Part shown: positions 16,000 through 35,469 of the stretch, piece after piece
Position numbering within the stretch: the first letter of the stretch is position 1
Layout of the letters: each line of letters starts with the position of its first letter
From: an uncultured Gammaproteobacteria bacterium
Lineage (GTDB): Bacteria > Patescibacteriota > Microgenomatia > Levybacterales > UBA12049
NCBI GenBank assembly: GCA_964474445.1
Contig: CAYYSJ010000002.1
Coordinates: 119,570-183,569 of the forward strand
Direction: 5' to 3'
Length of the DNA stretch: 64,000 nt
Notes under the pieces: model-generated
What the model was told of the DNA's origin: nothing
What the model saw: only the letters and a program-made list of their open reading frames with translations
Database searches by the model: none
Translations under genes and position numbers: made by a program

Positions 16000-18108
16000 A
16001 TGGCTGATACAGCAGTACGACACGCAGAATTAGACAAAATTAGAAATATTGGTATTATTGCGCACATTGACGCAGGAAAAACAACCACAACCGAACGTAT
16101 CCTTTACTACACTGGTAAATCCTACAAAATCGGTGATATTGACGAAGGAAATACGCAAATGGACTGGATGGAACAGGAAAGAGAAAGAGGTATTACCATT
16201 GTATCTGCTGCTACTACTACGTTTTGGAAGGATTACAGAATTAACATTATTGATACTCCAGGTCATGTCGATTTTACCGCTGAGGTAGAGCGATCTTTGA
16301 GAGTTCTTGATGGAGGTATTACTGTGTTGGATGCTGAAGAAGGTGTGCAATCACAGTCTGAGACAGTTTGGAGACAAGCAGATAAATACAGAGTTCCAAG
16401 AATTTGTTTTGTTAACAAAATGGATAAGCTTGGTGCAGACTTTTTACATACAGTCCAAACCATTGAAGACAGACTTGGTGCAAATCCAGCAATTATGGTG
16501 TTACCAATTGGAGCTGAAAATACCTATGAAGGAAATGTTGATTTACTTACAAGAAAAGCAATCCGATGGGGATCTGACGAATTAGGTGCAAAATTTGATG
16601 TTACTGACAATATTCCAGAGGATATGAAGGCACAAGTTGAGGAATATAGACAAAAATTAGTTGAGAAAATTGCAGAAACAAATGATGTACTTTTAGAAAA
16701 ATACTTAGGTGGAGAAGAAATGAGTATTGAGGAATTAAAGAAGGCTCTCCGAGCAGCTGTTATTTCGTACAAATTAGTCCCTATTTATGCAGGAACATCT
16801 TTGAGGAATAAGGGAGTACAGCCACTTCTTGATGCAGTTATTGACTATCTTCCATCTCCAGTTGATTTGGGAGAGGTTAAGGGTATAAATTCAAAGACAG
16901 AACAAGAAGAAGTCAGAAAATTAGTTCCTGAAGAAAAACTCACTGGACTTGCCTTCAAAATTCAAATCGACCCACATGTTGGAAAAATTACCTACTTTAG
17001 AGTCTACTCTGGAAAAGTTGAAGCCGGATCATACATTTACAATGCAACCAAAGGTATCACAGAGCGTGTTGGCAGAATTCTTTTGATGCATGCAAACCAA
17101 AGAGAAGAAATTAAAGAAGCATATGCAGGAGAAATTGTTGCATTAGTCGGACTTAAGGACACTATTACTGGAGATACTCTCTGCGATGAAAAAGCCCCAA
17201 TAGTACTCGAGCAAATTACCTTCCCAGAACCAGTTATCTCTTTGGCAATTGAACCACAAAGTAAAGCAGATCAGGAAAAGCTTGGACTTGCTCTGAAGAG
17301 ACTTACAGAAGAAGATCCAACATTCCAAGTGAAGACCAATCACGAGACCAATCAGACCATTATTTCAGGGATTGGAGAGTTACAGCTTGAAATTATGGTT
17401 GATAGAATGAAAAGAGAATTTGGAGTTTCAGCAAATGTTGGAGCACCTCAGGTTGCATATAAAGAAACAATTGGCATATTGGCAGAAGGCGAAGGGAAAT
17501 ACATTCGGCAGTCTGGAGGACGAGGTCAATATGGTCACTGCTGGCTTCGAATTGAGCCAAAGCCGCGAGGAGAAGGCTTTGAATTTGTTAATGCTATTAA
17601 GGGAGGAGCAATCCCGGCAGAATTTGTTATCTCCATTCAAAAAGGTGTTAAGGAAACAATTGAAAATGGCGTACTTTTGGGATACCCAATTGTTGATGTA
17701 AAAGTAACCGTTTATGATGGATCATACCATGATGTTGACTCATCTGATATGGCATTTAAAATTGCTGCATCTATGGCTTTCCAGGCAGCTTCAAAGAAAG
17801 CAAATATGCAACTTCTTGAGCCAATAATGAAGGTTGAAGTGACAACTCCTTCAGAATTCATGGGAGATATTATTGGGGATCTTTCTTCAAAGAGAGCTCA
17901 AATCATGGGGACAGAAGAAAGATCACGAGCAACTATTGTGAAAGCCATGGTTCCACTTGCAGAGCTTTCTGGATATGCAACTCAACTTCGAAGTATGTCA
18001 CAAGGCCGAGCATCTTACTATATGGAACCATCCCACTATGAAGAAGTTCCACAAAATATTGTGCAACAGCTTCTTGCTAAATCCACTTTCACAGGACGAG
18101 TAGAGTAA
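16000..18108 (+). CDS. fusA: Elongation factor G
   Basis: [20 protein letters not shown]-domain and full EF-G domain order. The ORF-track start at 15973 is over-extended. MADTAV at 16000 is the likely start. Confidence 0.95.
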
Positions 18109-18129
18109 CCGTAGTCTTTTGTATAATTT

Positions 18130-18990
18130 TTGTCAAATAACCAAGTACGTCTTTGTGTATTCATAGATTACACCTTCCTTGCCCTTTTGCTACAAATACC
18201 ATATAATCGCTCGATGAGAAATGTCGAGGCATGTTCTGAGCTCCGAAAACCTATTTGGGAGCAAAGAAGGGTTGTTGATAAAAAAGCATGGCAAACGGAA
18301 GGAAGCCAATTAGCCCTTTTCAACATGCTAGTTGGTGACTTTATTGCTTCTGGATGTTCTATTGGTGCTATTAATGACCTTATCCCATTAGGAGACTTTG
18401 TAGATAGAGCATTTTTACAAGCAAACTTACCTCTTCGGCAGGAAGAAAAATTAGTTGATCCAGTTGTGCATTCTTACCGTGTCGCCTTGCGTTTTGTTAA
18501 GGGGACACAACTTGATCCGAAAGTATTGCCAACCTATGCTGCGATAGCACTTCTCCATGATGTTGTGGAGGATACCCATACAGACCCTGAAGTTATAAAA
18601 AAAATATTTGGAGAGGAAATTGCACAAGGAGTTGTATTGCTCAGCAAGAAAGTAAATGGGGTAAAAATTTCAATAGAAAGGTACTATGAAGAGCTCCGTA
18701 ATGCAGACCCTGAAATTCGGTGGATTAAAGCTGCAGATAGAATCGAGAATTTATCTGTCTTTTTACGAATGAGTTATGTGCCAGAGCTCATAGATCCTAA
18801 TCAATTTAAACTTCCCAGTGGAAACAGCATCTTACAGGCCATGGCAGAAAACTTAATGGAGTCTCAACAACATGTTATGGAACTGGCAAAAGGTAATCCA
18901 TATTTGCAAAAAGAGCTTCAAGAAGTAATGCAACAAATAAAAGAAAGACTTATACAGCTTAAAGCTCAAAAAAAAGTATTTGATGCGTAG
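18130..18990 (+). CDS. HD-domain protein of the RelA/SpoT hydrolase type (small alarmone hydrolase-like); true start probably internal
   Basis: Metal-binding His (VVHSYRVA), ALLHDVVEDT and KAADRIENL motifs match the (p)ppGpp hydrolase HD domain. There is no synthetase domain. Confidence 0.55.
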   Translation: MSNNQVRLCVFIDYTFLALLLQIPYNRSMRNVEACSELRKPIWEQRRVVDKKAWQTEGSQLALFNMLVGDFIASGCSIGAINDLIPLGDFVDRAFLQANLPLRQEEKLVDPVVHSYRVALRFVKGTQLDPKVLPTYAAIALLHDVVEDTHTDPEVIKKIFGEEIAQGVVLLSKKVNGVKISIERYYEELRNADPEIRWIKAADRIENLSVFLRMSYVPELIDPNQFKLPSGNSILQAMAENLMESQQHVMELAKGNPYLQKELQEVMQQIKERLIQLKAQKKVFDA

Positions 18991-19119
18991 AAGATACATA
19001 TAGATTTTATATTTCTTATTAGATATAGTGTATTCAAATGGCAAATAAAAGACTTATTAGTATTATTATTCTTAACCGTTAACGCGGCGGGATAATAGTA
19101 CTTTGATAACTAATAACAT

Positions 19120-19143
19120 CCCGTCATGAAGACGGGTTTTTTT
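19120..19143 (+). terminator. Intrinsic terminator CCCGTC-ATGAA-GACGGG + TTTTTTT
   Basis: Perfect 6-bp GC stem plus a T-run. It overlaps the over-extended ORF-track start at 19126. Confidence 0.65.
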
Positions 19144-19149
19144 GTGGTT

Positions 19150-20736
19150 ATGAATAAAATTGCAATTATCGGAGGAGGTTTTAATGGATTATGCGTTGCT
19201 GCGCATATCATGCGTCTTGCAACTGAGCAGGGAAAGAAGGCATATATCACTGTTTTTGATGCAACAGGACTACGAAGCGGTAGAATATTCTCTCCTGAAT
19301 TACCTGATAATTTTACCCTCAACCATGAAACTGCAAATATGGGTTCTCTTCATCCTTTTTCATCCGTTGGGACTGACGACTTTTATAATTGGATTCAAGA
19401 AAAAAAAGATGAACCGCTGAAAAGTCTTAGTGGAACAACACTTGCAAAAAGATACAAGAAATGGGATCTTGATAATCCCTCTGGGTATCTTCCACGGAGT
19501 CTTTTTGGACATTATCTGGTGTACCGTCTCGACCAAATGAGCGGAAGTTCCCAAACCGATAATTATACCTTCTCGTATTTGTTAAAAAAAGTCGAGTCAG
19601 TAGTAAAAGTAGGGGGAAAATATAAAATTATCTGGGATGATAAAAAAGAATTGTTTGATACTGTTATTATCGCTACTGGTTTCTGGTACAACAGCAAGGA
19701 TAATACAGAAATAGTATATAAAGGGGAAGAGAAATGGCTCCCTAAGGCTTCAGATCCAATTGCTGTTATCGGTTCTTCATTATCTGCAATTGAGGTTTCA
19801 CTTGCCTTAGCAGATAAGGGTTATACAAATGTGACTATGTATAGTCGACACGGGAGGTTGCCTAAAGTACGTGGGAATACTCATCCATATATACCACGTT
19901 ATGTGACAACAACTGCTTTAGAGAAATTACAAAATAAATTTGGTTACGTAGAGTCTGTACTTCTTTTGCCTTTACTCAAGAAGGAATTTGATTATGCATA
20001 TTTTGTCAAAAGAGAGGGACTTTATCGGCGCGAAGGCATTCATTGGCAAGAGATATTACAGAATACAAACCCCCTCCGACAACTGGAAGAAGATATTAAA
20101 AAAGCAGAGAGTGGAGAAGAATTAGTATGGCGATCTGTTTTGACAAGTCTCTATGAATATGAAGGTGTCATCTGGCGTGGTCTTTCTGGATTTTCCCGCC
20201 ATAGCTTTTTGCAAAAGTACTCAAGTTTACTCTTGAGTTTTATAGCACCGATGCCACTGTTTCAAGCAAAAAGGCTGTTGAAGTATATGAGAAAAAAGAA
20301 AATAAAGCTTGTTGCCGGTGTCGATCATTATCAGGAGGAACATAGTAGATGGGTTATTCAAATAGGTGGGAAAAAGTATGTAAAAAGGTATTTAATAGAT
20401 GCTCGTGGTCCTGCAAAGCATGTAGGAACAAACGCATTTTTACGGTCGCTTATTGACCAACAGCTTTTAGAGAAAAATACAGCTGGAGGAATTTTCGTCA
20501 ATAGACAGCTACAAGTTGTTGTTAAAAATAAGGTTCAGCCTAATCTCTACGCCATAGGCCCCATAGTATATGGTGAACGCCCTCATAATAGCACTGTTTT
20601 TGCGACAGAGTATGCAGAGTTAGTTGCTTCTTATATTGTAAATAGTCTTGATTCATCAAAAGTACATGCTGTAACAGAGGCTGAAGCACCTTTTCTATCA
20701 AGTCACGTTGATTTTCTCCCAACGCTTTTCTCATAA
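19150..20736 (+). CDS. FAD/NAD(P)-binding protein of the YdhS-like family (NAD_binding_9-type Rossmann N-terminus)
   Basis: MNKIAIIGGGFNGLCVAAH dinucleotide-binding motif, a second GxGxxA (AVIGSSLSAIE) mid-protein, and a length (~530 aa) typical of YdhS-like proteins. Confidence 0.5.
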   Translation: MNKIAIIGGGFNGLCVAAHIMRLATEQGKKAYITVFDATGLRSGRIFSPELPDNFTLNHETANMGSLHPFSSVGTDDFYNWIQEKKDEPLKSLSGTTLAKRYKKWDLDNPSGYLPRSLFGHYLVYRLDQMSGSSQTDNYTFSYLLKKVESVVKVGGKYKIIWDDKKELFDTVIIATGFWYNSKDNTEIVYKGEEKWLPKASDPIAVIGSSLSAIEVSLALADKGYTNVTMYSRHGRLPKVRGNTHPYIPRYVTTTALEKLQNKFGYVESVLLLPLLKKEFDYAYFVKREGLYRREGIHWQEILQNTNPLRQLEEDIKKAESGEELVWRSVLTSLYEYEGVIWRGLSGFSRHSFLQKYSSLLLSFIAPMPLFQAKRLLKYMRKKKIKLVAGVDHYQEEHSRWVIQIGGKKYVKRYLIDARGPAKHVGTNAFLRSLIDQQLLEKNTAGGIFVNRQLQVVVKNKVQPNLYAIGPIVYGERPHNSTVFATEYAELVASYIVNSLDSSKVHAVTEAEAPFLSSHVDFLPTLFS

Positions 20737-20804
20737 GTCCTTACTACACGTTTCTTACTGCTCCTTCTCATGATTTTTCTTTTGAATTAGTTACTCTTTG
20801 TTGT

Positions 20805-21488
20805 ATGGTTGAGGCAATTGATGCAAAAGTTGTTTTTATCACAGGCTCAAGTCGTGGGATAGGAGCTGAAACAGCTGTTGCGTTTGCCCGTGAGGAAATG
20901 AATGTTGTAGTTACCTATTATGAAGAAGCGATACATGCTGAAGAGACTGCAAAAAGATGTCGTGCAGCAGGGGCTCCAGATGTCTTTTTAACCCAGCTCA
21001 ATATTCTGGATAGCCATAGCATTGAAGAAGCGGTAACAGCAATTATAAATCGTTATGAAAAAATAGATATTTTAGTAAATAATGCAGGAGTTTTGGTAGA
21101 AAGTTCACTTTCAGAGCAAAGTATTCAGGATATTGAACGTCAAGTAAGAACAAACTTGGAAGGGACGATAAAAGTAACAAAAGTATGTTTGCCATATGTT
21201 AGAGAGGCAATTATTAACATTGGTAGTGGTGCCGGCATAACAGCGTATGCTGGGCTTTCCCCGTATTCTGCGACAAAGTTTGGCGTTAGAGGGTTTACTC
21301 AAGCACTTGCGCAAGAGTTGGATGACATCGCAGTCTATGTCGTAAATCCAGGGCTTACTGCAACAGCAATGACGAATTTCGAGGGGATTCCACCTGAAAA
21401 AGTAGCAGATGTTGTTGTAAAAACTGCAAAAGGGGAATTGAATGCATATAAAGATCGAGATATTAATGTATGGGATTACGTTGAGTAG
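20805..21488 (+). CDS. Short-chain dehydrogenase/reductase (SDR)
   Basis: TGSSRGIG cofactor motif, NNAG, and the catalytic YSATK. Confidence 0.8.
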   Translation: MVEAIDAKVVFITGSSRGIGAETAVAFAREEMNVVVTYYEEAIHAEETAKRCRAAGAPDVFLTQLNILDSHSIEEAVTAIINRYEKIDILVNNAGVLVESSLSEQSIQDIERQVRTNLEGTIKVTKVCLPYVREAIINIGSGAGITAYAGLSPYSATKFGVRGFTQALAQELDDIAVYVVNPGLTATAMTNFEGIPPEKVADVVVKTAKGELNAYKDRDINVWDYVE

Positions 21489-21555
21489 TATTATGCCTTG
21501 ATCTGCTTTATGAATTTATCAACAAGTGTATGGTTTCCAATGATAATAGGACGAC

Positions 21556-22023
21556 TCATGATCTTAGTGTCTTTTTGATTTTTTGGACAAATTTTAAACG
21601 TTCTTCTTGGCTTGCAAACTGTTTATTCAATATTTCTTTATAGAAAGTATCAGTTGTATATCGTGGGAAAACGTGTTGATGATAATGAAATGCATGTTGA
21701 TTACCTGCTGGTTCATTATTTTGCACAAGCGTAATACCCTCACATTTATACGTTTTTTTCAATACTAAAGCAATTTTTTTAGAAATATCTGCAAGGGCAT
21801 ATGCATAGTCATTTGGGAGATCATACAAATTTTCAAAATGTTTATTTGGAACGACAATGATATGTCCTTCATTGCCTGGGATAAAAAATGAATTGATAAA
21901 TGCAGTGACGAGGCCATCTTTATAAATAACGTCACTTTGTTTTAGTAATGTGTCGTTATTCTCAATCCCATTGACTCCTAAACAAATCGGACAAATATAA
22001 TCCGCTGAAGCATGATTATACAT
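21556..22023 (-). CDS. HIT-family hydrolase
   Basis: Histidine triad HYHQHVFP plus the GHIIVVP motif. Confidence 0.75.
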   Translation of the reverse strand: MYNHASADYICPICLGVNGIENNDTLLKQSDVIYKDGLVTAFINSFFIPGNEGHIIVVPNKHFENLYDLPNDYAYALADISKKIALVLKKTYKCEGITLVQNNEPAGNQHAFHYHQHVFPRYTTDTFYKEILNKQFASQEERLKFVQKIKKTLRS

Positions 22024-22045
22024 GAGTAAAATTATATCACTATAG

Positions 22046-22074
22046 TTGAGTAATAGTTTGTTTTCTCTTATACT
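22046..22074 (+). promoter_or_regulatory. Sigma70-like promoter (TTGAGT, 17 nt, TATACT) ending 9 nt before the aclB ATG; near-leaderless
   Basis: Hexamers at 22046-22051 and 22069-22074. Confidence 0.4.
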
Positions 22075-22083
22075 TAAACCACA

Positions 22084-23292
22084 ATGGCGCGAAGAAAACT
22101 TCCTGAATATACTGCAAAAAAGTTATTGTTTGAAAAATTAGACTTACCCTACCATGGAATTGCAATTGAAAGTTTAGATAAAGAAGAATTGCGAAAACTC
22201 GATGTATTGAATAAGACGAAGTCTTATGTAGTAAAAGTAGACCAGGGGATAAAAAAACGAGGGAAGCAAGGGCTTATTGGGGTGAATGTTAACCCGTATA
22301 AAATAAAAAAGTATCTACATGAATTTGCACAAAAAGGTTATTCCCGATTTTTGGTTGAAGACTTTGTTTTACATGAAAAGGTAGATGAAAAATATTTTGC
22401 TCTTGAGAGAACACGAGAAGGTATTACTGTCTATATGTCTCAATTTGGTGGTATTGATATAGAGGAACATCAGGACAAAGTAGAATCAAGAATAATACAT
22501 CCTGAACAGAATGATTATGAAGGAAAAATTACTGAAATTAGCACCTTCTTAGGCTTGGACAAGACGCTTCTTAAAGAGATTGTGAATTTCTTTGATGAAG
22601 CTTATGTCTCCTTTCTTGAAATAAATCCTTTCTTAATTCTTGATTCTAAGTTCGTAATGTTGGACCTTGCTGTGGAAGTTGATAGTGCAGGAGAGTTTTT
22701 TGTGAAAGGAGCGTGGAGTGCGAAAGATGTTGTCAGTAATACAGCAGGGAAAAAATTAACAGATGAAGAAAAGGCTGTTCAGCAACTCAAGGAGAATTCT
22801 CAAGCATCTCTTAAATTGGATGTCTTAAATCCTAATGGGGGTATTTTTACCATGCTTTCAGGTGGAGGGGCAAGTATTACTATTGCTGATGAAGTTTATA
22901 ATAGAGGATTTGCAAAAGAGTTGGCAAATTATGCAGATTATTCAGGAAATCCAAATCAAGAGGAGACATATCTCTATACAAAACAACTGTTACGTCTTTT
23001 ACACAAGTCAGAAGCCTCAAGGAAAGCTCTTGTTATTGCAGGAGGAGTTGCGAATTTTACCGACGTGAGGGTAACATTTAGAGGGATTCTTCAGGCACTT
23101 GCAGAAGATGTTTTAGCTTTGCAAAAGGAAGAAGTCAAAGTCTTTGTGAGGCGAGGTGGGCCGAATCAGATTGAAGGGCTTGCAATGATGAAAAATTTCC
23201 TTACTGAAAAGAATTTATACGGAGGAGTTTGGGACCAAACAATGGTTTTAACAGATGTTGTGAATAAAGCGATAGAGTATGTGAAACCATAG
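22084..23292 (+). CDS. aclB: ATP-citrate lyase small subunit (ATP-grasp / SucC-like; citryl-CoA synthetase beta)
   Basis: Collinear by eye with the N-terminal ~420 aa of eukaryotic ACLY and with Chlorobium AclB (VVKVDQGIKKRGKQGLIGVN, LEINPF, LNPNGGIFTMLSGGGAS, VRRGGPN). Confidence 0.8.
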   Translation: MARRKLPEYTAKKLLFEKLDLPYHGIAIESLDKEELRKLDVLNKTKSYVVKVDQGIKKRGKQGLIGVNVNPYKIKKYLHEFAQKGYSRFLVEDFVLHEKVDEKYFALERTREGITVYMSQFGGIDIEEHQDKVESRIIHPEQNDYEGKITEISTFLGLDKTLLKEIVNFFDEAYVSFLEINPFLILDSKFVMLDLAVEVDSAGEFFVKGAWSAKDVVSNTAGKKLTDEEKAVQQLKENSQASLKLDVLNPNGGIFTMLSGGGASITIADEVYNRGFAKELANYADYSGNPNQEETYLYTKQLLRLLHKSEASRKALVIAGGVANFTDVRVTFRGILQALAEDVLALQKEEVKVFVRRGGPNQIEGLAMMKNFLTEKNLYGGVWDQTMVLTDVVNKAIEYVKP

Positions 23293-23328
23293 TTCAATAC
23301 TACATAGCAAAATAATACATTAACCAGT

Positions 23329-25110
23329 ATGTTAAACATGCAGACACTACGACAAATTAAAGACTTTAACATCTTATTTTTGGGTTCTTATCCGTCTATT
23401 ATTCAATCTATTTTAGATTTTGATTATCTCTCAGGTAAAGAATATCCTTCCATTGTGGGAATTGTTGCAACCGGTCGTCGAACAGAACGTTATTTCTGGG
23501 GAGAGGGAGAAGTGATGCTTCCTGTTTTCCCAAGCGTTGATGCTGTACCCGAGGAAATAAAAAAAGAAGTGAATGCATTTTTTAACAATGCTTCGGGAAG
23601 GCGTGTTTTCTCAACAACGATAAATGCTCTGGATCTTTTTCCTCACCTTCAACTTGGAGTTATTTTTGCAGAAGAGACTCCGGAGAAACATGCTCTCGCC
23701 CTCTACAAAAAAGCAGAAGAAAGACAGGTCATGTTAGTCGGTCCAGCGAGTGTTGGCGTACTTCTCCCTCAAAAACTCAAGCTTGGTCCAATAGGCGGAG
23801 TGGATTTTCGACAAATGATAAGTTCTCAAATTCTCACGCCTGGGAATATTGCCGTTTTTTCTTCATCAGGAGGTATGACAAACGAGCTGATTAATATTGT
23901 CACATCAGCAGGTCACAGACTTTCTTTTGCCATGTCTTTTGGAGGAGATAGATTTCCTTTGATGACTCCTTTAGATGCACTGCTTGCGGTAGAAAAAGAC
24001 AAATCCACAGAATACATAGTCTATTTTGGAGAGTTGGGTGGGTATGATGAATATGATATCGCTGAGGCGCTGAAGACAAAAAAAGTAAACAAGAAAGTGA
24101 TTTGCTACATTGCAGGAACAGTATCAGAGATGTTTGAGACTCCTCCTCAGTTTGGTCATGCGAAGGCAATGGCTGGAAGAAGTGGTGAAGGAGCCTCTGC
24201 AAAAAGAAAAGCGTTACAGGAAGCAGGAGCAGTTGTTGCATCATCCTTTACTGATTTTGTTTCTATGGTAAGAAGTCTTCCACAAAAGCACTACAAGGAG
24301 ACCGAGTATGCTATGATAGGGAAGGTTATGGAAGAGAGACAAAAAGCACTCATTGCAACAACAATCAGTAGTGACAAGGATGGGAAAGTCATGGTGTTGG
24401 GCGAAGAGTTGTTGTCCTTTGCGAAGAATAATTCCTTTGCAAGAATTGTTGGAAGTTTGTTTTTAGGCAAAAAATTACGTTCTCGAGATACAGAACAATT
24501 CATTGATTTTGTTTTAAGACTATTAGTTGATCATGGCCCCTATGTTTCTGGTGCAGTCAATACCATTATTACTGCGCGAGCTGGAAAAGATTTAGTTTCG
24601 TCTCTTGCAACAGGCCTTTTGACAGTTGGTCCTCGCTTTGGTGGAGCAATTAATGAGGCAGCAGGAAATTGGTTAAGAGGTGCTACTAGGGGAGTCTCTG
24701 CTGAAGAATTTGTCGAACATTTTGCTTCTTCTAAAAAATTTATTGCAGGAATAGGTCACAAAAAATATCGAGTGGATTTCCCAGACCCTCGGGTAAAAGA
24801 AATTCTTCGATTTGCACCGGGGAAAAGAATGTTCACAAAATTTGCTTTGGAAGTTGAAAAAATCACAGTTGCTAAAAAAGGGAATCTTATCTTAAATGTT
24901 GATGGTGCAATTGCTGCTGTTTTACTTGATTTACTTTTAGAAAAGGAAGAATATACAGTGGAGGACTTGCAAAGACTTGTTGATATAGAATTCTTCAATG
25001 CCTTATTTGTACTGTCGCGCTCTGTTGGATTTATCTCTCATTTCTTGGATCAGAAGCGACTTGATGAAGGACTTTTCAGACTACCAGAAGATCAAGTTGC
25101 TGAAATATAA
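23329..25110 (+). CDS. aclA: ATP-citrate lyase large subunit (CoA-binding/SucD-like + citrate-synthase-like citryl-CoA lyase domain)
   Basis: VDHGPYVSGAVNTIITARAGKDLVSSLATGLLTVGPRFGGA and GIGHKKYRVDFPDPRV (the citrate-synthase His motif) are present. FVLSRSVGFISHFLDQKRL matches the ACLY C-terminus closely. Confidence 0.85.
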   Translation: MLNMQTLRQIKDFNILFLGSYPSIIQSILDFDYLSGKEYPSIVGIVATGRRTERYFWGEGEVMLPVFPSVDAVPEEIKKEVNAFFNNASGRRVFSTTINALDLFPHLQLGVIFAEETPEKHALALYKKAEERQVMLVGPASVGVLLPQKLKLGPIGGVDFRQMISSQILTPGNIAVFSSSGGMTNELINIVTSAGHRLSFAMSFGGDRFPLMTPLDALLAVEKDKSTEYIVYFGELGGYDEYDIAEALKTKKVNKKVICYIAGTVSEMFETPPQFGHAKAMAGRSGEGASAKRKALQEAGAVVASSFTDFVSMVRSLPQKHYKETEYAMIGKVMEERQKALIATTISSDKDGKVMVLGEELLSFAKNNSFARIVGSLFLGKKLRSRDTEQFIDFVLRLLVDHGPYVSGAVNTIITARAGKDLVSSLATGLLTVGPRFGGAINEAAGNWLRGATRGVSAEEFVEHFASSKKFIAGIGHKKYRVDFPDPRVKEILRFAPGKRMFTKFALEVEKITVAKKGNLILNVDGAIAAVLLDLLLEKEEYTVEDLQRLVDIEFFNALFVLSRSVGFISHFLDQKRLDEGLFRLPEDQVAEI

Positions 25111-25111
25111 A

Positions 25112-25954
25112 TTATTTAGGGGGTTGTTCGAGACGTCTTCTTGCTCTTTTGGTTAATGCACCCTGTTCTGATAGAACACGATGAACTGCAGCTTTACGCA
25201 TGGCATCTACTACTTGTCGCGAAGAAACTTGTTGTACGCTCATGACTTCAGGCCTTCGTGCATGGGCGATTGCGCTATCTACCTCATCTTGCAGTGGTTG
25301 TTGAACAACAACAGGTGGTTCCCCAGCTTTTCGGAAAACAAGTTCTTCAGACATTACTTTGATTTAATCAGAAAGGAGAGTTAGGAACAAGAGAAAGTTA
25401 TCTCAATGCTCGTGGATCTAGACGAATAACTCCTTCACTAATTTCTACTCCATTTAAAACTTCTTTTTTTGCATGCCTTTTATACCATCGTCGTGAGCGT
25501 ATTTTTGGTAAACCCACTGGGGGTTGTCTCCATACTGTACCCTCTTCAACTGTTTTTTGGGGCTCTGTTGGTGGATGTCTTCTTTTCCCCATAGTTTTGC
25601 GCATTATAGCAACTAAGATCTCGGTTGCCTTCTGGAAAATCGTGTGTCGTCAGTTGGTCCTACAGGTGGCTCCAAAATCCACACAGTGGGATTATTTGGA
25701 TCACCTAATGTTCGTTTTGCTTGTGCGAGTGTCTCTTCAACTTTTTCTGGAGTTTTTTTTGTTGAACGGGGTTTGGAAGGTCGTGAATGTGGTTTTGTTT
25801 CACCAAATGAAGCAGGAGGAATTATCCCGTAGGCTGTTTGAATAGCGCGAACCCCTCGACCATCATCTTCTCGTGAGCCTCCATTATTAGTAAGTCCTTT
25901 CCATTTGGAAGAAGGTTCTTTGTTCCCCACAATTACCATAATATCCATATACAC
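25112..25954 (-). other. Three collinear small basic ORFs (113, 68, 80 aa) in a locally GC-richer (~48-50%) patch; unknown function, possible gene remnant or foreign DNA
   Basis: The ORF-track entries 25613-25954, 25398-25604 and 25112-25354 all lie on the minus strand. They are R/K-rich (KRRHPPTEPQ...RSRRWYKRHAKK). I recognise no family for them. Confidence 0.25.
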
Positions 25955-26196
25955 TAAAAAAATACAATGGAGAAAATCATGAGTAAATCCGCATATTACG
26001 TCCTAATGTATGGTAAATAAATATTGATCACCTCAGTTCTCAAAAAAGAGAGATCTTCTCTCAACTACGACATGTCTCTTTACGAAGGAGTTCAATGCTA
26101 GTCCTTTGGTTGTTCTTTCATTATTCTTATTCCTTTTTTGCTTCGTTTTAAGACTCACTCAGCAATAATAAAAAGACGCAAAAGGAGGTGATTTCC

Positions 26197-26568
26197 ATGC
26201 CAGATACCAAAAAATCTTCCCGTAAGGATGAAAAAGAAGAGATGATGGAAGAACAGGGCGATAAAAAAGGGAAAAAGGGTGGAACAGCCCAAGCCACAGG
26301 TCCAAATATTATGGCTGCAGCAATGATGGGTGCTATTGCGGGTGCAGCAGTTGGTGTAGCAACACAAATAGCATTGTCAGATGAAAAAACAAGACAAAGA
26401 GCATCCGAAGTCATGAGCGACATGAGAGATAGAGCTGCAGATAGAATTTCTCAAATGACCAAAACAGCCAAACAGACGGCTTCAAAAGCAGTTGATGCAC
26501 TTCCTGAAAACATGAGGGAGTCTGCCAAAAAAATGACTGAGGGGCAGAATAATAAAAAGGGAGAGTAA
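26197..26568 (+). CDS. Small protein with K/E-rich N-terminus, a Gly/Ala-rich hydrophobic helix and a coiled-coil tail (YtxH/DUF948-like?)
   Basis: AAGGAGG sits 8 nt upstream of the ATG at 26197. The sequence includes AAAMMGAIAGAAVGVATQIAL. Confidence 0.4.
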   Translation: MPDTKKSSRKDEKEEMMEEQGDKKGKKGGTAQATGPNIMAAAMMGAIAGAAVGVATQIALSDEKTRQRASEVMSDMRDRAADRISQMTKTAKQTASKAVDALPENMRESAKKMTEGQNNKKGE

Positions 26569-26724
26569 ACATCCTTTAGGAAGAGATAAGGAAATCCCGT
26601 TTTGACAATATGCAGGATCAAAGCGGGATTTTATGTATACAGATAACATAATAGTGCTTTGAAAATAATCTTACGAAGAGAACCTCTTGCGAGAATACTT
26701 ATATGCTTGTTACAATTAACTCCT

Positions 26725-27060
26725 ATGGATATACTCGTTGGTTGGTTGGTTAGCACACTCTCCATCCTTATTACTGCATATCTTCTTCCTGGTGTCCATT
26801 TACAAAGTTTTGTTGCTGCACTAGCAACTTCACTTGTATTGGGGATTATTAATGCAATTATTAAACCGGTTCTCTTAGTGTTAACACTTCCTATTAATGT
26901 CTTATCGCTTGGCCTTTTTACGTTTGTAATCAATGCATTGTTAGTGTTGTTAGCCTCGCGAATTGTTCCTGGATTTCAAGTGGATGGGTTTTTGTGGGCA
27001 CTTGCTTTTAGTATTGTCCTCTCTCTCGTCAATTCCGTTCTTCACAACCTATCTCGATAA
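26725..27060 (+). CDS. DUF360 / phage-holin-4-like small membrane protein (YvlD-like)
   Basis: LLPGV...KPVLLVLTLPINVLSLGLFTFVINALLVLLAS pattern across 3-4 TM helices. The ORF-track start at 26659 is probably too long. Confidence 0.55.
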   Translation: MDILVGWLVSTLSILITAYLLPGVHLQSFVAALATSLVLGIINAIIKPVLLVLTLPINVLSLGLFTFVINALLVLLASRIVPGFQVDGFLWALAFSIVLSLVNSVLHNLSR

Positions 27061-27075
27061 CGGACACATAATGCT

Positions 27076-28299
27076 ATGAAACAATCATCATTTGCAGCCC
27101 TACAATTTCATGCACTTCGTATTTTTCTTTTTGGACTTTTTGTTTCAACACTTGGTTCAGCAATGCAAACAGTTGCTGTTGGATGGCATGTCTATGAAAT
27201 GACACATTCTGCAATTAGTTTGGGATTTTTAGGTATTGCAGGATTTTTACCAATCCTTCTTTGTTTTTTGCCAGGAGGTGCCATTGCAGACACATTTAAT
27301 AGAAAAAAGGTGCTGATTCTTCTTCAAATTGTTTTTGGATTCGGAGCAAGTGTGCTTGGCTTAGTGACCATATTACACATTGTTAACCCATATATTATCT
27401 ATGCAGTTTTAGCAGTCAATGGACTTTTAGTAACCGTTGATTTACCAGCTCGTTCTGCTATTATTCCACTCCTTGTCCCAAAACAATATGTTTTTGGTGC
27501 AGTAAGTCTTAACACGCTTTTTCGTCAGATAGCTTTTGTGTTAGGGCCTGCAAGTGCAGGATTTTTGATTGCATTGTTTGGTCCACAAAGTGTTTATTTT
27601 TTTAATGCAGTTTCCTTTTTTGTCATGCTTGTTGCTCTTCTTCTCATTCATGTGCCACACCTGGGAGAGAAAAAGGCAGGTGTTTCATTACAGTCAGTAA
27701 GTCAGGGCATCCATTTTATCCGTCAATCACCACTTATCTATTCAACAATACTTCTTGATTTTTTTGTCACATTTCTTGCCTCATCTGTTGTTCTATTGCC
27801 AGTCTTTGCGAGAGAGATATTGCATGTTAGTGCAGCAGAACTTGGACTTTTGTATGCTGCTCCATCCTTTGGTGCTGTACTTGCAGGATTTATTTTTTCC
27901 AGTGTCGGGAATATCCATCGTCAAGGCAGGTTTCTTTTTGCAGCCATAGGTGTCTATAGTGTGGCCACAATAGCATTTGGTGTGTCTCGTTCATTACTCC
28001 TATCACTCCTATTCCTTGCAATTGCAGGAGCAGGAGATATGGTAAGTACAATTATTCGCAATGGGATTAGACAACTTATGACTCCAGATGAGATGAGAGG
28101 AAGAATGACAGCGATCTCTATGGTGTTCTTCATTGGAGGGCCGTTCTTAGGAGACAGCGAAGCAGGGTTTCTTGCAGGATTAGTGGGTGCTCCTCTATCT
28201 GTTATTGTCGGAGGAGTTGCTGCTGTATTATTTATCTTTGGTGTTTGGGTAAAGACTCCAAAACTCACAAACTACAATAACTCAGATATGAGCCTCTAA
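27076..28299 (+). CDS. MFS transporter
   Basis: 12 predicted TM segments and the MFS loop motif (GGAIADTFNRKK). Confidence 0.8.
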   Translation: MKQSSFAALQFHALRIFLFGLFVSTLGSAMQTVAVGWHVYEMTHSAISLGFLGIAGFLPILLCFLPGGAIADTFNRKKVLILLQIVFGFGASVLGLVTILHIVNPYIIYAVLAVNGLLVTVDLPARSAIIPLLVPKQYVFGAVSLNTLFRQIAFVLGPASAGFLIALFGPQSVYFFNAVSFFVMLVALLLIHVPHLGEKKAGVSLQSVSQGIHFIRQSPLIYSTILLDFFVTFLASSVVLLPVFAREILHVSAAELGLLYAAPSFGAVLAGFIFSSVGNIHRQGRFLFAAIGVYSVATIAFGVSRSLLLSLLFLAIAGAGDMVSTIIRNGIRQLMTPDEMRGRMTAISMVFFIGGPFLGDSEAGFLAGLVGAPLSVIVGGVAAVLFIFGVWVKTPKLTNYNNSDMSL

Positions 28300-28320
28300 A
28301 GACAATACCTTTTTTATCCG

Positions 28321-28728
28321 TTATCGCCACAACGCGAACACTGCGCCAAAAATAACAAATGAGACCAAAAAGTAGCCAGTTTCAATAAAATATAGTCCTA
28401 CTTTTTTCCCGGAAAAAACCCAATTAGCAAATTGTGTAGTGGCAGTAAATCCAAGCCACACCATTCCTCCGGTTATAGCTCCAGATGTGAGTGTATGAGT
28501 GCCTGTTAGACGAACAACCCAACTCATGAAATAAGCCATGACGAGTGCAGCAATAAACATCATTCCGTATTTTGCTCCCATATTGCTTTCTTTCATTTGT
28601 TTGTCCATCCATTCTTTGGTGTAGCCATTGTATTTCATCCATGGTTTGGCAAAAAGTGGTCCGTACCAGAGAAAGCCAAGTACCATATTAATAACTGCTG
28701 CTACCAAGACTGCGAGATAATTTGTCAT
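28321..28728 (-). CDS. DUF1761-like small membrane protein
   Basis: A 135-aa 4-TM protein with the LGFLWYGPLF N-terminal motif. Confidence 0.5.
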   Translation of the reverse strand: MTNYLAVLVAAVINMVLGFLWYGPLFAKPWMKYNGYTKEWMDKQMKESNMGAKYGMMFIAALVMAYFMSWVVRLTGTHTLTSGAITGGMVWLGFTATTQFANWVFSGKKVGLYFIETGYFLVSFVIFGAVFALWR

Positions 28729-28852
28729 ATCATTTCACCCCCTTTCTATAAAAATAGTAAAAGTAAGATAGATAAAAGTAAAGTAGAAGATGAGAAGGGG
28801 GGTTTTAAGGCTACAAAAAATGCTTCTCGCATTCTCCTGCTATAATCATTCC

Positions 28853-29908
28853 ATGAAGAAACTACTTTTTGGGATTTTAGTTATTGTGTTGTTAATCGTA
28901 TACACCGTTTCTATCTCACATCCTCAACAAAAAAAACAAACCTCAACTTTTGCTAGTCCAACTCCTACGATAGTTCCTGTAACCCTTACCAATAAAATAC
29001 TTTTTGTACCATATTGGACAGTAAATGGAGGTATCGATGGTACATACAATGAATATGTTTACTTTGGTGTTGTTCCAGATAAAACAGGTATTGTCCGTAC
29101 AGACAGTGGGTATCAAAACATGCAGACATTCGTACATGCTGTACCTACTGGAACGAAAAAATTACTAGGAGTACGAATGGTTAATACCACAATAAATGAG
29201 TCTATTTTGCATAATGATGCGTTGCAACAGAAAGTTATTGCTGATGCAGTTTCCATAGCGCAAGATAATGGATTTGATGGTATTTTACTTGATTTGGAAT
29301 ACAGTGCATTTCCCTTTGATTCTGTTATACAAAGCGTTACGACTTTTTCAAAGCAGTTTGCTGATATAACAAAAAGTCATAGCTTACTTTTTTATCAGAC
29401 AGTTTATGGAGATACCTATTACAGGGGAAGACCATATACGGTAAAGGATTTAGCAAAGAATGCTGATAGGATTTTAATAATGGCATATGATTTTCATAAA
29501 GCCAATGGGGATCCAGGAGCTAATTTTCCTCTTGAGATGGGAAGTGAAGGCTATTCATTTAAGGAAATGGTAAATAACTTTACCAAGGATGTTTCATTAT
29601 CCAAACTGACTGTGATTTTTGGCATGTTTGGATATGATTGGAAAGTAAATGAAAAAGGTAATTCAGTAGGACAAGCTGAAAGCTTGAGTACGAATGAAAT
29701 GTTGCAAAAGTTTGTTGGCAGGTGTTTATTTAAAAATTGTTCAGTCGTGCAAAATGCTTCTTTAGAAACAAACGTTACTTATGAAGATAGCACTGGACAG
29801 AAGCACGAAGTGTGGTTTGAGGATAGAACTTCTATTATCAAAAAAGAAGAAGTTCTGGAGAAAAATGGCATTTCTTCAGTTGGTTTCTGGGCGAATGGGT
29901 ACTTCTAG
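28853..29908 (+). CDS. Glycoside hydrolase family 18-like protein (chitinase/peptidoglycan hydrolase fold) with signal anchor
   Basis: DGFDGILLDLEY matches the GH18 DxxDxDxE catalytic motif. There is an N-terminal TM, and the start at MKKLLFGIL (28853) is preferred. Confidence 0.7.
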   Translation: MKKLLFGILVIVLLIVYTVSISHPQQKKQTSTFASPTPTIVPVTLTNKILFVPYWTVNGGIDGTYNEYVYFGVVPDKTGIVRTDSGYQNMQTFVHAVPTGTKKLLGVRMVNTTINESILHNDALQQKVIADAVSIAQDNGFDGILLDLEYSAFPFDSVIQSVTTFSKQFADITKSHSLLFYQTVYGDTYYRGRPYTVKDLAKNADRILIMAYDFHKANGDPGANFPLEMGSEGYSFKEMVNNFTKDVSLSKLTVIFGMFGYDWKVNEKGNSVGQAESLSTNEMLQKFVGRCLFKNCSVVQNASLETNVTYEDSTGQKHEVWFEDRTSIIKKEEVLEKNGISSVGFWANGYF

Positions 29909-29939
29909 TTATAGGTTTTATTCCTTAAAACTGATGACA

Positions 29940-30830
29940 TTACTTTGTGCTCCATCGAGCAAAAATGCCTGTTGAGAGAAGTCTTTTGCCTGCGGATTCT
30001 TCAAGACATAATTCTCCTACTTCGATTATTCCACTAAATTTATTTAAGTAATCGCCCATAACATTCTCAAGCATGATTGCGGATGAAGAAATAGCATACG
30101 CATTTACAATGACAAAAAGAGGTTTTGGAGAAAGGATTTTTGATATCTGTTCCATAAGTAGAGGAAAATTTTCATTAAATTTCCAAATTTGGCCTGTTGG
30201 TCCATGTCCATAAACAGGAGGATCCATAATAACTCCATCATAGGTATTACCTCTTCGAATCTCTCGTTCAACAAACTTTACTGCATCTTCCAAAATCCAA
30301 CGAATAGGTTTGTCCTCAAGTCCTGATAATTTTTGATTGTCTCGTGCCCAGGCAATTGAAGGACGAGAGGCATCTACATGCGTAACTTTTGCTCCTGCAG
30401 CTGCTGCAGCAAGAGAAGCAATACCAGTATAACCAAAGAGATTCAAAATATTTGGAATCTTAGGATTTGTGGATTTCTGGACTTCTGCATTTCTAACTTT
30501 CTCTTCAATCCAGTCCCACTGCAAGCTTTGTTCTGGAAAAACGCCAGTATGCTTGAAAGCGGTCAGTCTTGCCCAAAAGGATAAATGTTTATACGACATT
30601 TTCCATTTTTCAGGCAGGCGAGTGCGGTATTCCCAAATACCACTGTCAGCGTTCGTTCTTCTGAAACTAACAGCAGCTTTTTCCCATTCATTGCTAGATA
30701 GTGTCGGTTTCCAAATCGCTTGAGGATCGGGACGTACAATAGTATATGTTCCAAATTTTTCAAGTCGGAAACCATTACCACTATCAATTAATTGATAATC
30801 GTTCCAACCTTTACTAATAAGAATTTGCAT
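29940..30830 (-). CDS. Class I SAM-dependent methyltransferase, RlmI/YccW-like (rRNA m5C-type)
   Basis: GYTGIASLAAAAAGAKVTHVDAS SAM-binding motif and the catalytic DPPVYGHG. Confidence 0.7.
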   Translation of the reverse strand: MQILISKGWNDYQLIDSGNGFRLEKFGTYTIVRPDPQAIWKPTLSSNEWEKAAVSFRRTNADSGIWEYRTRLPEKWKMSYKHLSFWARLTAFKHTGVFPEQSLQWDWIEEKVRNAEVQKSTNPKIPNILNLFGYTGIASLAAAAAGAKVTHVDASRPSIAWARDNQKLSGLEDKPIRWILEDAVKFVEREIRRGNTYDGVIMDPPVYGHGPTGQIWKFNENFPLLMEQISKILSPKPLFVIVNAYAISSSAIMLENVMGDYLNKFSGIIEVGELCLEESAGKRLLSTGIFARWSTK

Positions 30831-30943
30831 AGCTTTCTATTATTATACGAAAAAAACGTATAAAAATTTATGATTTTACTATTACCTTTATCAATCAAAA
30901 TATATCAAAATGTAGAAATTTTACAAAAGTTTCAAAAAGGGTG

Positions 30944-30972
30944 TTGACGGGAAATAATAAATGTTGTATCAT
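30944..30972 (+). promoter_or_regulatory. Sigma70-like promoter for tuf (TTGACG, 17 nt, TATCAT)
   Basis: Hexamers at 30944-30949 and 30967-30972. The ORF-track start at 30941 lies inside this promoter and is an artefact. Confidence 0.55.
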
Positions 30973-31012
30973 GACAACAGACTCAATAAACGAGTCTTTC
31001 TTTTTTAAAACT

Positions 31013-32191
31013 ATGGCAACATTTCAAAGAACAAAACCACACGTAAACATTGGAACCATTGGTCACGTTGACCACGGTAAGACAACCACGACAGCAGCTA
31101 TTGCTACCGTTCTTGCTAAAAAAGGAATGGCAGAAGCAAAGAAATACGAAGATATTGATAATGCCCCAGAAGAAAAAGCACGAGGAGTTACCATTAATAT
31201 TTCCCACATTGAGTACGAAACAGCAAAAAGACATTATGCACATATTGATGCTCCAGGTCACGCAGATTACATCAAAAACATGATTACCGGAGCAGCACAA
31301 ATGGATGGTGCTATCCTTGTTGTTTCAGCTCCAGATGGTCCAATGCCTCAAACTCGAGAACATATCCTTCTTGCTCGACAAGTCGGTGTTCCAGCAATTG
31401 TCGTTTACATGAACAAGACAGATATGGTACAAGATCCAGAACTTCTTGATCTTGTTGAAATGGAAGTTAGAGAGCTTCTCTCTAAATATCAATATCCAGG
31501 TGATGATGTTCCAGTTATCCGAGGTTCTTCTCTTAAAGCTCTAGAGGGAGATCCAGAAGCAGAAGCAAAGATTATGGAGCTCATGGATGCAGTTGATTCT
31601 TATATTCCAGATCCAGTTCGAGATACAGCAAAGCCATTCTTGATGCCAGTTGAGGACGTTTTCTCAATCAAAGGTCGAGGAACAGTTGTTACCGGAAGAA
31701 TTGAAAGAGGAGAAGTCAAGGTTAATGAACCAGTTGAGATTGTTGGAATGAAAGCTACAGCACAATCTGTTGTTACCGGAGTTGAAATGTTTAGAAAACA
31801 ACTCGATTCAGGTATTGCAGGAGATAATGTAGGTCTTCTTCTCCGAGGAGTTGAAAAAGATGATGTAGAGAGAGGACAAGTTATTGCTAAACCAGGTTCT
31901 ATTACTCCACACACACAATTTGAAGCAGAAGTGTACGTTTTGGCAAAAGAAGAAGGTGGACGACATACACCATTCTTTAAAGGATACAGGCCACAATTCT
32001 ATATTAGAACAACTGATGTGACTGGAAACGTTACTCTTCCAGACGGAGTAGAAATGATTATGCCAGGAGATAATACAAAGATGACTGTTGAACTTATTGT
32101 TCCAGTTGCTCTTGAAGAAGGTCTTCGATTTGCTATCCGAGAAGGAGGAAAAACAGTTGGAGCAGGAGTTATCACAAAGATCATTAAATAA
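31013..32191 (+). CDS. tuf: Elongation factor Tu
   Basis: [30 protein letters not shown] and the full EF-Tu sequence. Confidence 0.95.
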
Positions 32192-35467: not shown

Positions 35468-35469
35468 CT

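Follow-up and report, generated by a model that had tools for sequence, protein, structure and literature searches.

A probable two-subunit ATP-citrate lyase operon in a Levybacteria-like CPR bacterium

Introduction

Most of central metabolism is missing in CPR bacteria (Patescibacteria) and, to our knowledge, the source of their acetyl-CoA has rarely been addressed. Two adjacent genes in a 64-kb stretch of DNA (hereafter the window) raise this question directly. An initial annotation read them as a complete two-subunit ATP-citrate lyase (ACL) in what appeared to be a CPR-like genome, and considered such an enzyme atypical of these organisms. Here we ask whether the pair encodes ACL, how widely the enzyme occurs in CPR, and what it might supply to the cell.

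Results

Organization of the locus

The two genes, aclB and aclA, lie in the same orientation and are separated by 36 nt (Table 1). A promoter had been proposed in front of aclB, and the site can indeed be reproduced, its −35 hexamer at 22046 marking the start of the initially annotated span and its end lying 9 nt before the aclB ATG. However, such sites are no denser in the region than in shuffled sequence (11 found versus 10.1 ± 3.5), so that the match is at the level of chance. In 22075..22083, upstream of the aclB ATG, we see no Shine-Dalgarno motif, and a terminator scan found no plus-strand terminator-like site after aclA.

Upstream of aclBA in the window are genes for a HIT protein, an SDR and an FAD oxidoreductase. 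The divergent HIT gene noted in the initial annotation is real, but it is a conserved neighbour in none of 77 related loci, and all three genes were rejected as functional partners and considered incidental because in those loci no gene clusters with any of the three. The downstream side has small ORFs together with genes for a holin-like protein, an MFS_3 transporter, a DUF1761 protein and GH18.

Table 1 Features of the aclBA locus (positions in the window).
Feature	Position	Strand	Basis
HIT gene, divergent	21556..22023	minus	HIT domain 3.2e-18 (Pfam)
Promoter-like match, TTGAGT-17nt-TATACT	22046..22074	+	9/12 consensus matches; weak evidence only
aclB, ATP-citrate lyase beta (small) subunit, 402 aa	22084..23292	+	ORF list, Pfam, PDB phmmer
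AclB ATP-grasp domain, aa 3-211	22090..22716	+	Pfam PF24948 Citrate_synth_N 2.7e-32, PF08442 ATP-grasp_2 5e-07
AclB citrate-binding domain, aa 224-398	22753..23277	+	Pfam PF16114 Citrate_bind 1.3e-55
aclA, ATP-citrate lyase alpha (large) subunit, 593 aa	23329..25110	+	ORF list, Pfam, PDB search
AclA CoA-binding/CoA-ligase half, aa ~19-317	23383..24279	+	Pfam Ligase_CoA 6e-12, Succ_CoA_lig 3e-08
Codon of His277, predicted catalytic phosphohistidine (QFGH277AKA)	24157..24159	+	Translation, human alignment
AclA C-terminal citrate-synthase-like citryl-CoA lyase (CCL) domain, aa 341-584	24349..25080	+	Pfam Citrate_synt 9.6e-18

Subunit architecture and conserved residues

The domains are distributed as in ACL, with ATP-grasp and Citrate_bind on the small subunit and the CoA-ligase and CCL domains fused on the large one. 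All of the motifs named in the initial annotation are found in the translations of the two ORFs. In AclB these are LEINPF at aa 178, SGGGAS at 259 and VRRGGPN at 355; within LEINP, E179 and N181 do not vary among the CPR homologues compared (74 of 74). The PF16114 match spans profile positions 2-176 of 177. Within it, the GGG loop 260-262, G288, N324-F325-T326 and R356-R357 align with human G281-283, G309, N346/F347/T348 and R378/R379, respectively; all of them vary little or not at all among the 74 CPR homologues, and the citrate-binding residues G288, N324, T326 and R357, together with G260-262, are kept in 72-74 of the 74 homologues.

AclA carries QFGHAKAMAG at aa 274-283, VDHGPYVSGAVNTII at 400-414 and GIGHKKYRVDFPDPRV at 474-489. 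Its CoA-ligase half is homologous to the alpha subunit of succinyl-CoA synthetase (SCS) and aligns with human ACLY 503-800, E115 corresponding to human E599. The histidine on which an assignment to ACL depends is in place, as H277 of QFGHAKA, which pairs in the alignment with human H760 (QFGHAGA). Both E115 and H277 are invariant in 78 of 78 CPR homologues. The CCL domain, which matches NCBIfam citryl-CoA lyase models at 2e-22, contains H402, H477, R488 and D525, and the first, second and fourth of these align with human H900, H975 and D1026 (human numbers counted off the printed alignment). Across the catalytic residues H402, H477, D525 and E115, conservation is 76-78 of 78.

Relationship to solved enzymes

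In phmmer searches of the PDB, AclB matched ACLY-A of Methanothrix concilii (6hxi_A; 1.7e-61, 212 bits), human ACLY (1.1e-60, 209 bits) and Chlorobium AclB (6hxj_A; 1.7e-41, 146 bits), followed by the large subunit of citryl-CoA synthetase (CCS) at 9e-18; the matches listed at E<=0.001 include no SCS-beta chain. Single-sequence PDB searches with AclA likewise returned human ACLY (5e-112 over query residues 19-591, 378 bits), Methanothrix 6hxi_B (2.5e-108, 366 bits) and Chlorobium 6hxj_B (1.7e-68, 235 bits), whereas SCS-alpha reached at most 80 bits, the CCS small subunit 73 and CCL 68. A profile built from 36 CPR sequences scored the human, Methanothrix and Chlorobium ACLs at 489, 474 and 308 bits versus at most 110 for the others. 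Overall, bit scores to SCS, CCS, CCL and citrate synthase are 2-5 fold below those to solved ACLs, with which the alignments are full-length (1e-61 to 1e-112). AclA is collinear with human ACLY 503-1092 and with 6hxi_B 18-607, and the same domain order extends over both subunits, as initially proposed.

The order and orientation of aclB and aclA are conserved in related loci, with a gap of at most 40 nt in 65 of 71. The domain architecture, the full-length alignments and the catalytic and citrate-binding residues thus uphold the initial assignment to a complete enzyme, and the two genes probably form a bicistronic operon for a functional heteromeric ACL in a Levybacteria-like CPR bacterium.

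Distribution of ACL in CPR

The genome is CPR, as initially guessed: RpoB of the window is 73-77% identical to Levybacteria sequences, and no L30 gene lies between S5 and L15 in the window. A scan of species-representative genomes for ACL yielded at least 585 confirmed matches. The best 80 of these are almost all from Patescibacteria, with aclB directly upstream of aclA in nearly all of them. The CPR-wide family includes, among the matches listed, Levybacteria, Woesebacteria, Roizmanbacteria, Magasanikbacteria, Saccharimonadia and Paceibacteria/Kaiserbacteria. ACL is therefore a recurrent trait of several CPR classes, not a rarity. The initial annotation overstated its case on this point, given hundreds of genomes and earlier publications: in 2019 Sieber et al. 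(PMC6851277) reported an ACL, described as archaeal-like and 'rarely detected in CPR', from Gracilibacteria 'Detritibacteria gulfii', and a 2025 study (PMC12577380) found Saccharimonadia MAGs to be enriched in aclAB. In the literature searched, we found no analysis of the CPR-wide family as such. Public records name homologues 'citrate/2-methylcitrate synthase', 'succinyl-CoA synthetase alpha' or 'hypothetical protein'.

Gene neighbourhoods of aclBA

Within three genes of aclBA, a GNAT acetyltransferase is found in 26 of the 77 related loci, glmS, glmM or murB in 24 and tdh-kbl in 4, together in 42; these counts are not phylogenetically independent. Most of the genes share a strand with aclBA, at spacings of at most 60 nt or overlapping, and Kbl is assigned at 581 bits (cut-off 460). 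Among 145 immediately flanking genes there are 19 GNATs and 10 MurBs, and among 145 control genes at least six genes away in the same loci no GNAT family reaches two members. These associations recur in several separate ACL clades of a neighbour-joining (NJ) tree. Because such genes adjoin aclBA in this many loci, the neighbours point to supply of acetyl-CoA for acetylation and cell-envelope synthesis rather than to a reductive TCA (rTCA) cycle. In this window, none of GNAT, glmS, glmM, murB or tdh-kbl is a neighbour of aclBA.

Two more specific candidates were rejected. Assignment of the flanking GNATs as GNA1-like glucosamine-6-phosphate N-acetyltransferases would complete a glmS-GNA1-ACL triad, and GNA1 entries from several eukaryotes are among the matches in a single-sequence PDB search of a flanking GNAT; however, profiles rank diamine, N-terminal and aminoglycoside acetyltransferases above GNA1, and NCBIfam gave nothing specific. 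The MFS transporter at 27076..28299 was considered as a citrate importer, but it matches only MFS_3/MFS_1, the former of 'secretion effector' type, and no citrate-carrier family, and it does not recur beside aclBA in the related loci. We found no gene in the window recognisable as a citrate transporter.

Discussion

Proposed mechanism and physiological role

From the homology with ACLY of known structure, we expect the ATP-grasp domain of AclB to bind MgATP and phosphorylate His277 of AclA. The phosphoryl group would then pass to citrate in the citrate-binding domain of AclB, contacted by G288, N324, T326 and R357, to give citryl-phosphate. CoA bound on the N-terminal half of AclA would attack this intermediate, and the resulting citryl-CoA would be split by the CCL domain, through H402, H477 and D525, into acetyl-CoA and oxaloacetate.

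With confidence about evenly divided, we suggest that citrate scavenged from a host or community may provide acetyl-CoA for GNAT acetylations and for UDP-GlcNAc/peptidoglycan precursors, and that the enzyme does not serve autotrophic rTCA. The oxaloacetate released could be used, for example, for aspartate. The reconstruction of the Gracilibacterium reads its ACL likewise, as converting external citrate to acetyl-CoA and oxaloacetate (PMC6851277). Such a role would be functionally analogous to that of the cytosolic ACLY of eukaryotes. A broader proposal, which we put forward only tentatively and think somewhat more likely to fail than to hold, is that ACL is an old, largely vertical trait of several CPR classes, with citrate that leaks or is taken from a host or community as the main source of acetyl-CoA in these episymbionts, and with coupling to N-acetylation and envelope precursors through operons that include GNATs, glmS, glmM and murB.

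Alternative readings

The enzyme might instead run mainly in reverse, forming citrate, CoA and ATP from acetyl-CoA, oxaloacetate, ADP and Pi, so that ACL would serve substrate-level phosphorylation and citrate would be excreted or passed on. The reaction is near equilibrium, CPR bacteria live by fermentation and rely on substrate-level phosphorylation, and this use of ACL was reportedly described in Desulfobacter postgatei by Moller, Schauder, Fuchs and Thauer in 1987. The tdh-kbl pair that directly adjoins aclBA in four loci makes acetyl-CoA and fits this direction equally well. However, reversal would use up an oxaloacetate for each ATP made, in organisms whose anaplerotic capacity is small, and far commoner neighbours are acetyl-CoA consumers (GNATs) or belong to the UDP-GlcNAc/murein pathway. 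Moreover, no downstream use of citrate is visible, because neither aconitase nor isocitrate dehydrogenase is among the recurrent neighbour clusters or annotated window ORFs. We regard predominant reversal as unlikely.

It is very improbable that aclBA was acquired recently by horizontal transfer, or stems from contamination during assembly or binning, rather than being a trait of the lineage. The Gracilibacterium ACL was inferred to have been laterally transferred from archaea (Sieber et al. 2019, PMC6851277), and a few non-CPR labels (Dormiibacterota, Gemmatimonadetes, 'Gammaproteobacteria') appear among the matches listed. Yet the aclBA genes share one contiguous 64-kb stretch with core CPR genes, among them rpoB, EF-G, EF-Tu and ribosomal protein genes, and show no GC anomaly (0.37-0.40 versus a window range of 0.33-0.405), and the same protein is found on three further independent contigs. 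In a coarse, arbitrarily rooted NJ tree, whose outgroups were human ACLY 503-1092 rebuilt from the printed alignment and one Thermoplasmatota sequence, the window AclA nests within a Levybacteria clade that has EF-G ... aclBA synteny in common, EF-G upstream of aclBA being common to Levybacteria-type loci. AclA is ~61% identical to Levybacteria homologues, its best match among the 80 species-representative loci kept (the best 80 of at least 585) being 62% identical; together with an RpoB identity of ~74-77%, this is of the order expected for vertical descent.

In Chlorobi, Campylobacterota, Nitrospirota and Aquificota, ACL classically marks the rTCA cycle, and on that ground the organism might be thought to fix CO2. 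We consider this extremely improbable: no partner enzyme (2-oxoglutarate:ferredoxin oxidoreductase (OGOR), PFOR, fumarate reductase, aconitase or IDH) is among the annotated window ORFs or the recurrent neighbours in the 77 related loci, and in type the CPR enzyme stands closer to the ACLs of eukaryotes and Methanothrix than to that of Chlorobium. According to Castelle 2018, as cited in PMC6851277, the TCA cycle is generally missing from CPR genomes.

The chance that the proteins are an SCS, or a CCS plus CCL system, mistaken for ACL is practically nil: although NCBI labels close homologues 'citrate/2-methylcitrate synthase' or 'hypothetical protein', JGI labels some 'succinyl-CoA synthetase alpha subunit' and the top NCBIfam matches are SCS models, those models score only 65-116 bits against cut-offs of 336-376 (TIGR01016, 64.9 versus 375.6; PRK05678, 116 versus 336), PDB scores are 3-5 fold higher to ACL (209-378 bits, versus 73 and 68 for the CCS subunits and 68 for Ccl), and both readings are refuted by the domain architecture, namely the ACL-specific Citrate_bind domain, the C-terminal citrate-synthase-like domain absent from SucCD and the fusion, unlike in CcsAB and Ccl, of the lyase to the CoA-ligase half on one polypeptide.

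Implications

The window genes thus gain a secure ACL annotation where public records give homologues other names, and the impression of ACL as an oddity in CPR genomes is corrected. A widespread ACL with intact catalytic residues, often in operons with acetyl-CoA users and UDP-GlcNAc/murein genes, suggests that citrate is a host-derived acetyl donor. If citrate from a host or community is the main source, CPR bacteria would depend on their hosts for acetyl-CoA supply, a concrete metabolic dependency that can be tested. Metagenome surveys that take aclAB as a sign of rTCA autotrophy also call for caution.

Comparison with known systems

The closest counterparts are ACLY-A/B of Methanothrix (Methanosaeta) concilii (6hxi/6znw) and human ACLY (6hxh, 6poe and others), which share with the window enzyme the order ATP-grasp, citrate-binding, CoA-binding, CoA-ligase with the phosphohistidine loop, and CCL, as well as all of the catalytic and citrate-binding residues examined. 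The Methanothrix subunits are split at the same point as AclB and AclA of the window, whereas animal ACLY is fused; identity to the human enzyme is only ~37% over the AclA part. After the GIGH histidine, human ACLY has R976 where the window has K478; K is found in 50 CPR homologues and R in 27. The hosts differ as well, an ultra-small fermentative bacterium as opposed to a methanogen and a eukaryote.

Chlorobium limicola AclBA (6hxj), the classical rTCA enzyme, has two subunits, the same aclB-aclA order and the same chemistry, but it is clearly the more distant relative, at 235 bits for AclA and 146 for AclB where the archaeal/eukaryotic type reaches 366-378 and 209-212, and it serves rTCA, whereas the window locus is without rTCA context. 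The CcsAB and Ccl proteins of Hydrogenobacter thermophilus (6hxq, 6hxp) and SCS have homologous modules (ATP-grasp beta, CoA-ligase alpha and citrate-synthase-like lyase), but score only 68-110 bits; in the window, by contrast, alpha subunit and lyase module form a single protein, and an ACL-type citrate-binding domain is part of the beta subunit. Within CPR, the ACLs of Gracilibacteria 'Detritibacteria gulfii' and Saccharimonadia are likewise two-subunit enzymes read as cleaving citrate to acetyl-CoA and oxaloacetate, the loop being GHAGA in the Gracilibacterium (PMC6851277) and GHAKA in the window enzyme.

Identification of a two-subunit ATP-citrate lyase

The initial annotation had read two adjacent ORFs as a complete ATP-citrate lyase (ACL), with the small subunit AclB encoded ahead of the large subunit AclA, and all the motifs that it quoted were found in the translations of the two ORFs. 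The genes are co-oriented and 36 nt apart. ORF1 contains an ACL-type ATP-grasp domain (PF24948, 2.7e-32) and a full-length, ACL-specific citrate-binding domain (PF16114, 1.3e-55). In ORF2, a single polypeptide joins a CoA-ligase half, similar to the α subunit of succinyl-CoA synthetase (SCS), to a C-terminal citrate-synthase-like domain. The predicted domain make-up of the pair is the AclB–AclA architecture.

Each subunit was compared against all solved structures. AclA aligned end to end with human ACLY (378 bits, 5e-112, query residues 19-591), Methanothrix concilii ACLY-B (366 bits) and Chlorobium AclA (235 bits), versus at most 80 bits for SCS-α, 73 for the small subunit of citryl-CoA synthetase (CCS), 68 for citryl-CoA lyase (Ccl) and at most 39 for citrate synthases. 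AclB scored 212 bits with Methanothrix, 209 with human, 146 with Chlorobium and 68 with the CCS large subunit, and no SCS-β chain was among its structure matches at E ≤ 0.001. The ranking was unchanged with a profile built from 36 CPR homologues (489, 474 and 308 bits to ACLs versus at most 110 to others). In the printed alignments, the phosphohistidine is present as AclA His277 (human His760), and the further AclA counterparts are Glu115 (Glu599), His402 (His900), His477 (His975) and Asp525 (Asp1026). Those in AclB are Gly260-262 (Gly281-283), Gly288 (Gly309), Asn324/Phe325/Thr326 (Asn346/Phe347/Thr348) and Arg357 (Arg379). All of these residues occur in the window and are kept in 72-78 of 74-78 CPR homologues. 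Because the structure scores favor ACL and the mapped residues are present and conserved, neither outcome that the initial annotation had named as counting against ACL, branching with SCS or loss of the phosphohistidine, was found. Its call of a complete AclBA in a CPR genome was correct and careful; the enzyme is apparently functional, as predicted from sequence, and its chemistry would follow from homology to ACL.

Features of the window and of related loci
Feature	Location	Strand	Product or remark
Sortase gene overlapping end of 788-aa ORF	105..3195	minus	
Promoter-like site	22046..22074		
ORF1, aclB	22084..23292	+	402 aa
ORF2, aclA	23329..25110	+	593 aa
Three small putative ORFs	25112..25954	minus	80, 68, 113 aa; just downstream of aclA
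Ribosomal protein S5 gene	42280..42816		
Ribosomal protein L15 gene	42820..43266		
ABC ATPase gene, then four tandem paralogous ABC-2 membrane protein genes	59685..63886		PF06182, ~260 aa each
rpoB, rpoC; EF-G, EF-Tu; ribosomal protein gene block, secY	window		
AlaRS; recA, recX; RNase Y; one tRNA-Pro	window		
tdh-kbl example	L009:5966-6985 and L009:7594-8796		
tdh-kbl example	L077:7639-8826		
Single ORF matching AclB and AclA	L083:4839-7973	+	~1044 aa

Host genome

The aclBA genes are part of a Levybacteria-like CPR genome. The best named relatives of RpoB are Candidatus Levybacteria/Levyibacteriota and ‘Patescibacteria group’ (73-77% identity). The absence of L30, a CPR hallmark to which the initial annotation had alluded, was borne out: the S5 and L15 genes are only 3 nt apart, and therefore no L30 gene lies between them (42280..43266). 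A contaminant origin of aclBA was rejected on the basis of the CPR core genes in the window, the lack of any compositional anomaly at the ACL region in a scan of the window, the EF-G gene upstream of aclBA that is common to the window and Levybacteria-type loci, and the occurrence of the same AclA protein in three other independent contigs.

Nearly all 2-kb bins of the window (1..64000) have a positive GC skew, the cumulative skew climbing steadily to 3.55, and the large ORFs are mostly plus-stranded, a pattern that fits the entire window lying on one leading-strand replichore.

Distribution of ACL in CPR

The initial annotation had also regarded ACL as untypical of CPR genomes, whereas it is common there. 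One genome per GTDB species was scanned with two CPR-type peptide patterns; this gave at least 585 confirmed stretches, and ACL is therefore present in the genomes of some hundreds of species or more. The best 80 of these loci are from Levyibacteriota, Saccharibacteria/Saccharimonadales, Woesebacteria, Roizmanbacteria, Magasanikbacteria, Kaiserbacteria, Paceibacterota and Minisyncoccia, the exceptions being a few loci with doubtful labels and one Thermoplasmatota archaeon. An AclA protein search returned 2163 matches at E ≤ 1e-20; the best 120 have at least 57% identity, nearly all at full length, and the named ones among them are Levybacteria, Saccharimonadales or Patescibacteria. The aclB gene lies immediately 5' of aclA, with a gap of at most 40 nt in 65 of 71 loci. 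In a coarse neighbor-joining tree, the CPR sequences cluster together, with human ACLY and the Thermoplasmatota sequence outside the cluster; its sub-clades match taxon labels, and the window belongs to the Levybacteria clade.

Some public labels are at odds with this placement. ‘Uncultured Gammaproteobacteria bacterium’ (TPA co-assembly MAGs) is the title of related loci L004-L006, L010, L015, L018-L020, L022-L025, L072 and L081, whose aclBA, EF-G and MurB synteny and sequence point to Levybacteria or other CPR, and an RpoB 85% identical to that of the window is labeled ‘Candidatus Eisenbacteria’. Such titles appear to be placeholders or labeling errors.

Gene neighborhood and possible role

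Neighbors within three genes of aclBA were counted in 77 related loci. GNAT acetyltransferases of three sequence families occur in 26 loci, murB in 14, glmS in 6, glmM in 4 and tdh-kbl in 4, and 42 of the 77 have at least one of these, mostly on the same strand as aclBA and with gaps of at most 60 nt or overlaps. Curated cut-offs were exceeded for GlmM (448.1 vs 447.55), GlmS (748 vs 418), MurB (193 vs 144.5) and Kbl (581 vs 460), and Tdh fell below its own (340 vs 380). Among 145 genes directly flanking aclBA, 19 encode GNATs (Acetyltransf_1) and 10 MurB, versus no GNAT family with two members among 145 random genes at least six genes away in the same loci. The associations recur across separate ACL clades, although the counts are not phylogenetically independent. 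None of these genes is near aclBA in the window.

Acetyl-CoA is consumed by GNATs, and one molecule of it is spent per UDP-GlcNAc in the GlmS-GlmM-(GlmU)-MurA-MurB pathway. The simplest reading of the gene context in related loci is that ACL would provide the acetyl-CoA used in acetylation and envelope synthesis by organisms otherwise without a TCA cycle. A minority reading, in which ACL runs in the reverse, ATP-yielding direction, draws on the four loci (L009, L038, L077 and L081, from different ACL clades) where a threonine dehydrogenase-like gene and Kbl (glycine C-acetyltransferase) adjoin aclBA: Tdh and Kbl convert threonine to glycine and acetyl-CoA, and two acetyl-CoA-linked modules are thus clustered. 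A role in reductive TCA autotrophy is very unlikely, with no partner enzyme among the annotated window ORFs or the recurrent neighbor clusters of the 77 loci and an enzyme closer to the eukaryote/Methanothrix type than to the Chlorobium type.

Other features of the window

The divergent HIT gene reported upstream of aclB exists; it is not a conserved aclBA neighbor among the related loci. The promoter-like site does end 9 nt before the aclB ATG, but such sites occur here at chance density. The three small putative ORFs beyond aclA encode Pro/Arg/Gln-rich, low-complexity-looking products without a Pfam match, in a 2-kb bin (24001..26000) whose GC of 0.405 is tied highest in the window; genes are called at their positions in two contigs of the same species (L001 and L002), where the products of the middle and third differ slightly in length, at 64 and 111 aa. 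The sole Pfam match of the 788-aa ORF is a weak Baseplate_J-like domain (8.7e-07), which would be odd for what is possibly a sortase-anchored surface protein. The four-fold ABC-2 permease array is unusual.

Comparison with known systems

SCS has no lyase domain, whereas ORF2 carries one, and the NCBIfam SCS models reach 65-116 bits where their cut-offs are 336-376; SCS identity was rejected. NCBIfam has no ACL model, which together with these sub-threshold scores explains the poor public names of homologues. CCS/Ccl identity was likewise rejected: in Hydrogenobacter (CcsAB plus Ccl) the lyase is a separate protein, whereas in the window it is a domain fused within ORF2, and scores are 68-73 bits versus 209-378 for human and Methanothrix ACL. 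The single ORF in L083 (Thermoplasmatota archaeon JAQUQK010000054.1) is predicted to encode an ACL fused in the manner of animal ACLY. With human ACLY 503-1092 its C-terminal part shares 58.6% identity, any CPR sequence being far lower (~37%), which fits the sister relationship published for ACLY and Thermoplasmatota-E3 (PMC11976288).

A two-subunit ACL was reported from a Gracilibacterium by Sieber et al. (2019), who called it ‘rarely detected in CPR’ and interpreted it as converting citrate to acetyl-CoA and oxaloacetate (PMC6851277), a 2025 groundwater study found aclAB enriched in Saccharimonadia MAGs (PMC12577380), and a 2022 preprint reported mis-annotated citrate-cleavage enzymes in CPR and DPANN. 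No analysis of a CPR-wide ACL family or its gene context was found in the literature searched. The AclBA of the window is a further member of a known enzyme family already reported from CPR; only the repeated occurrence of CPR aclBA in operons with acetyltransferases and UDP-GlcNAc/murein genes might be new.
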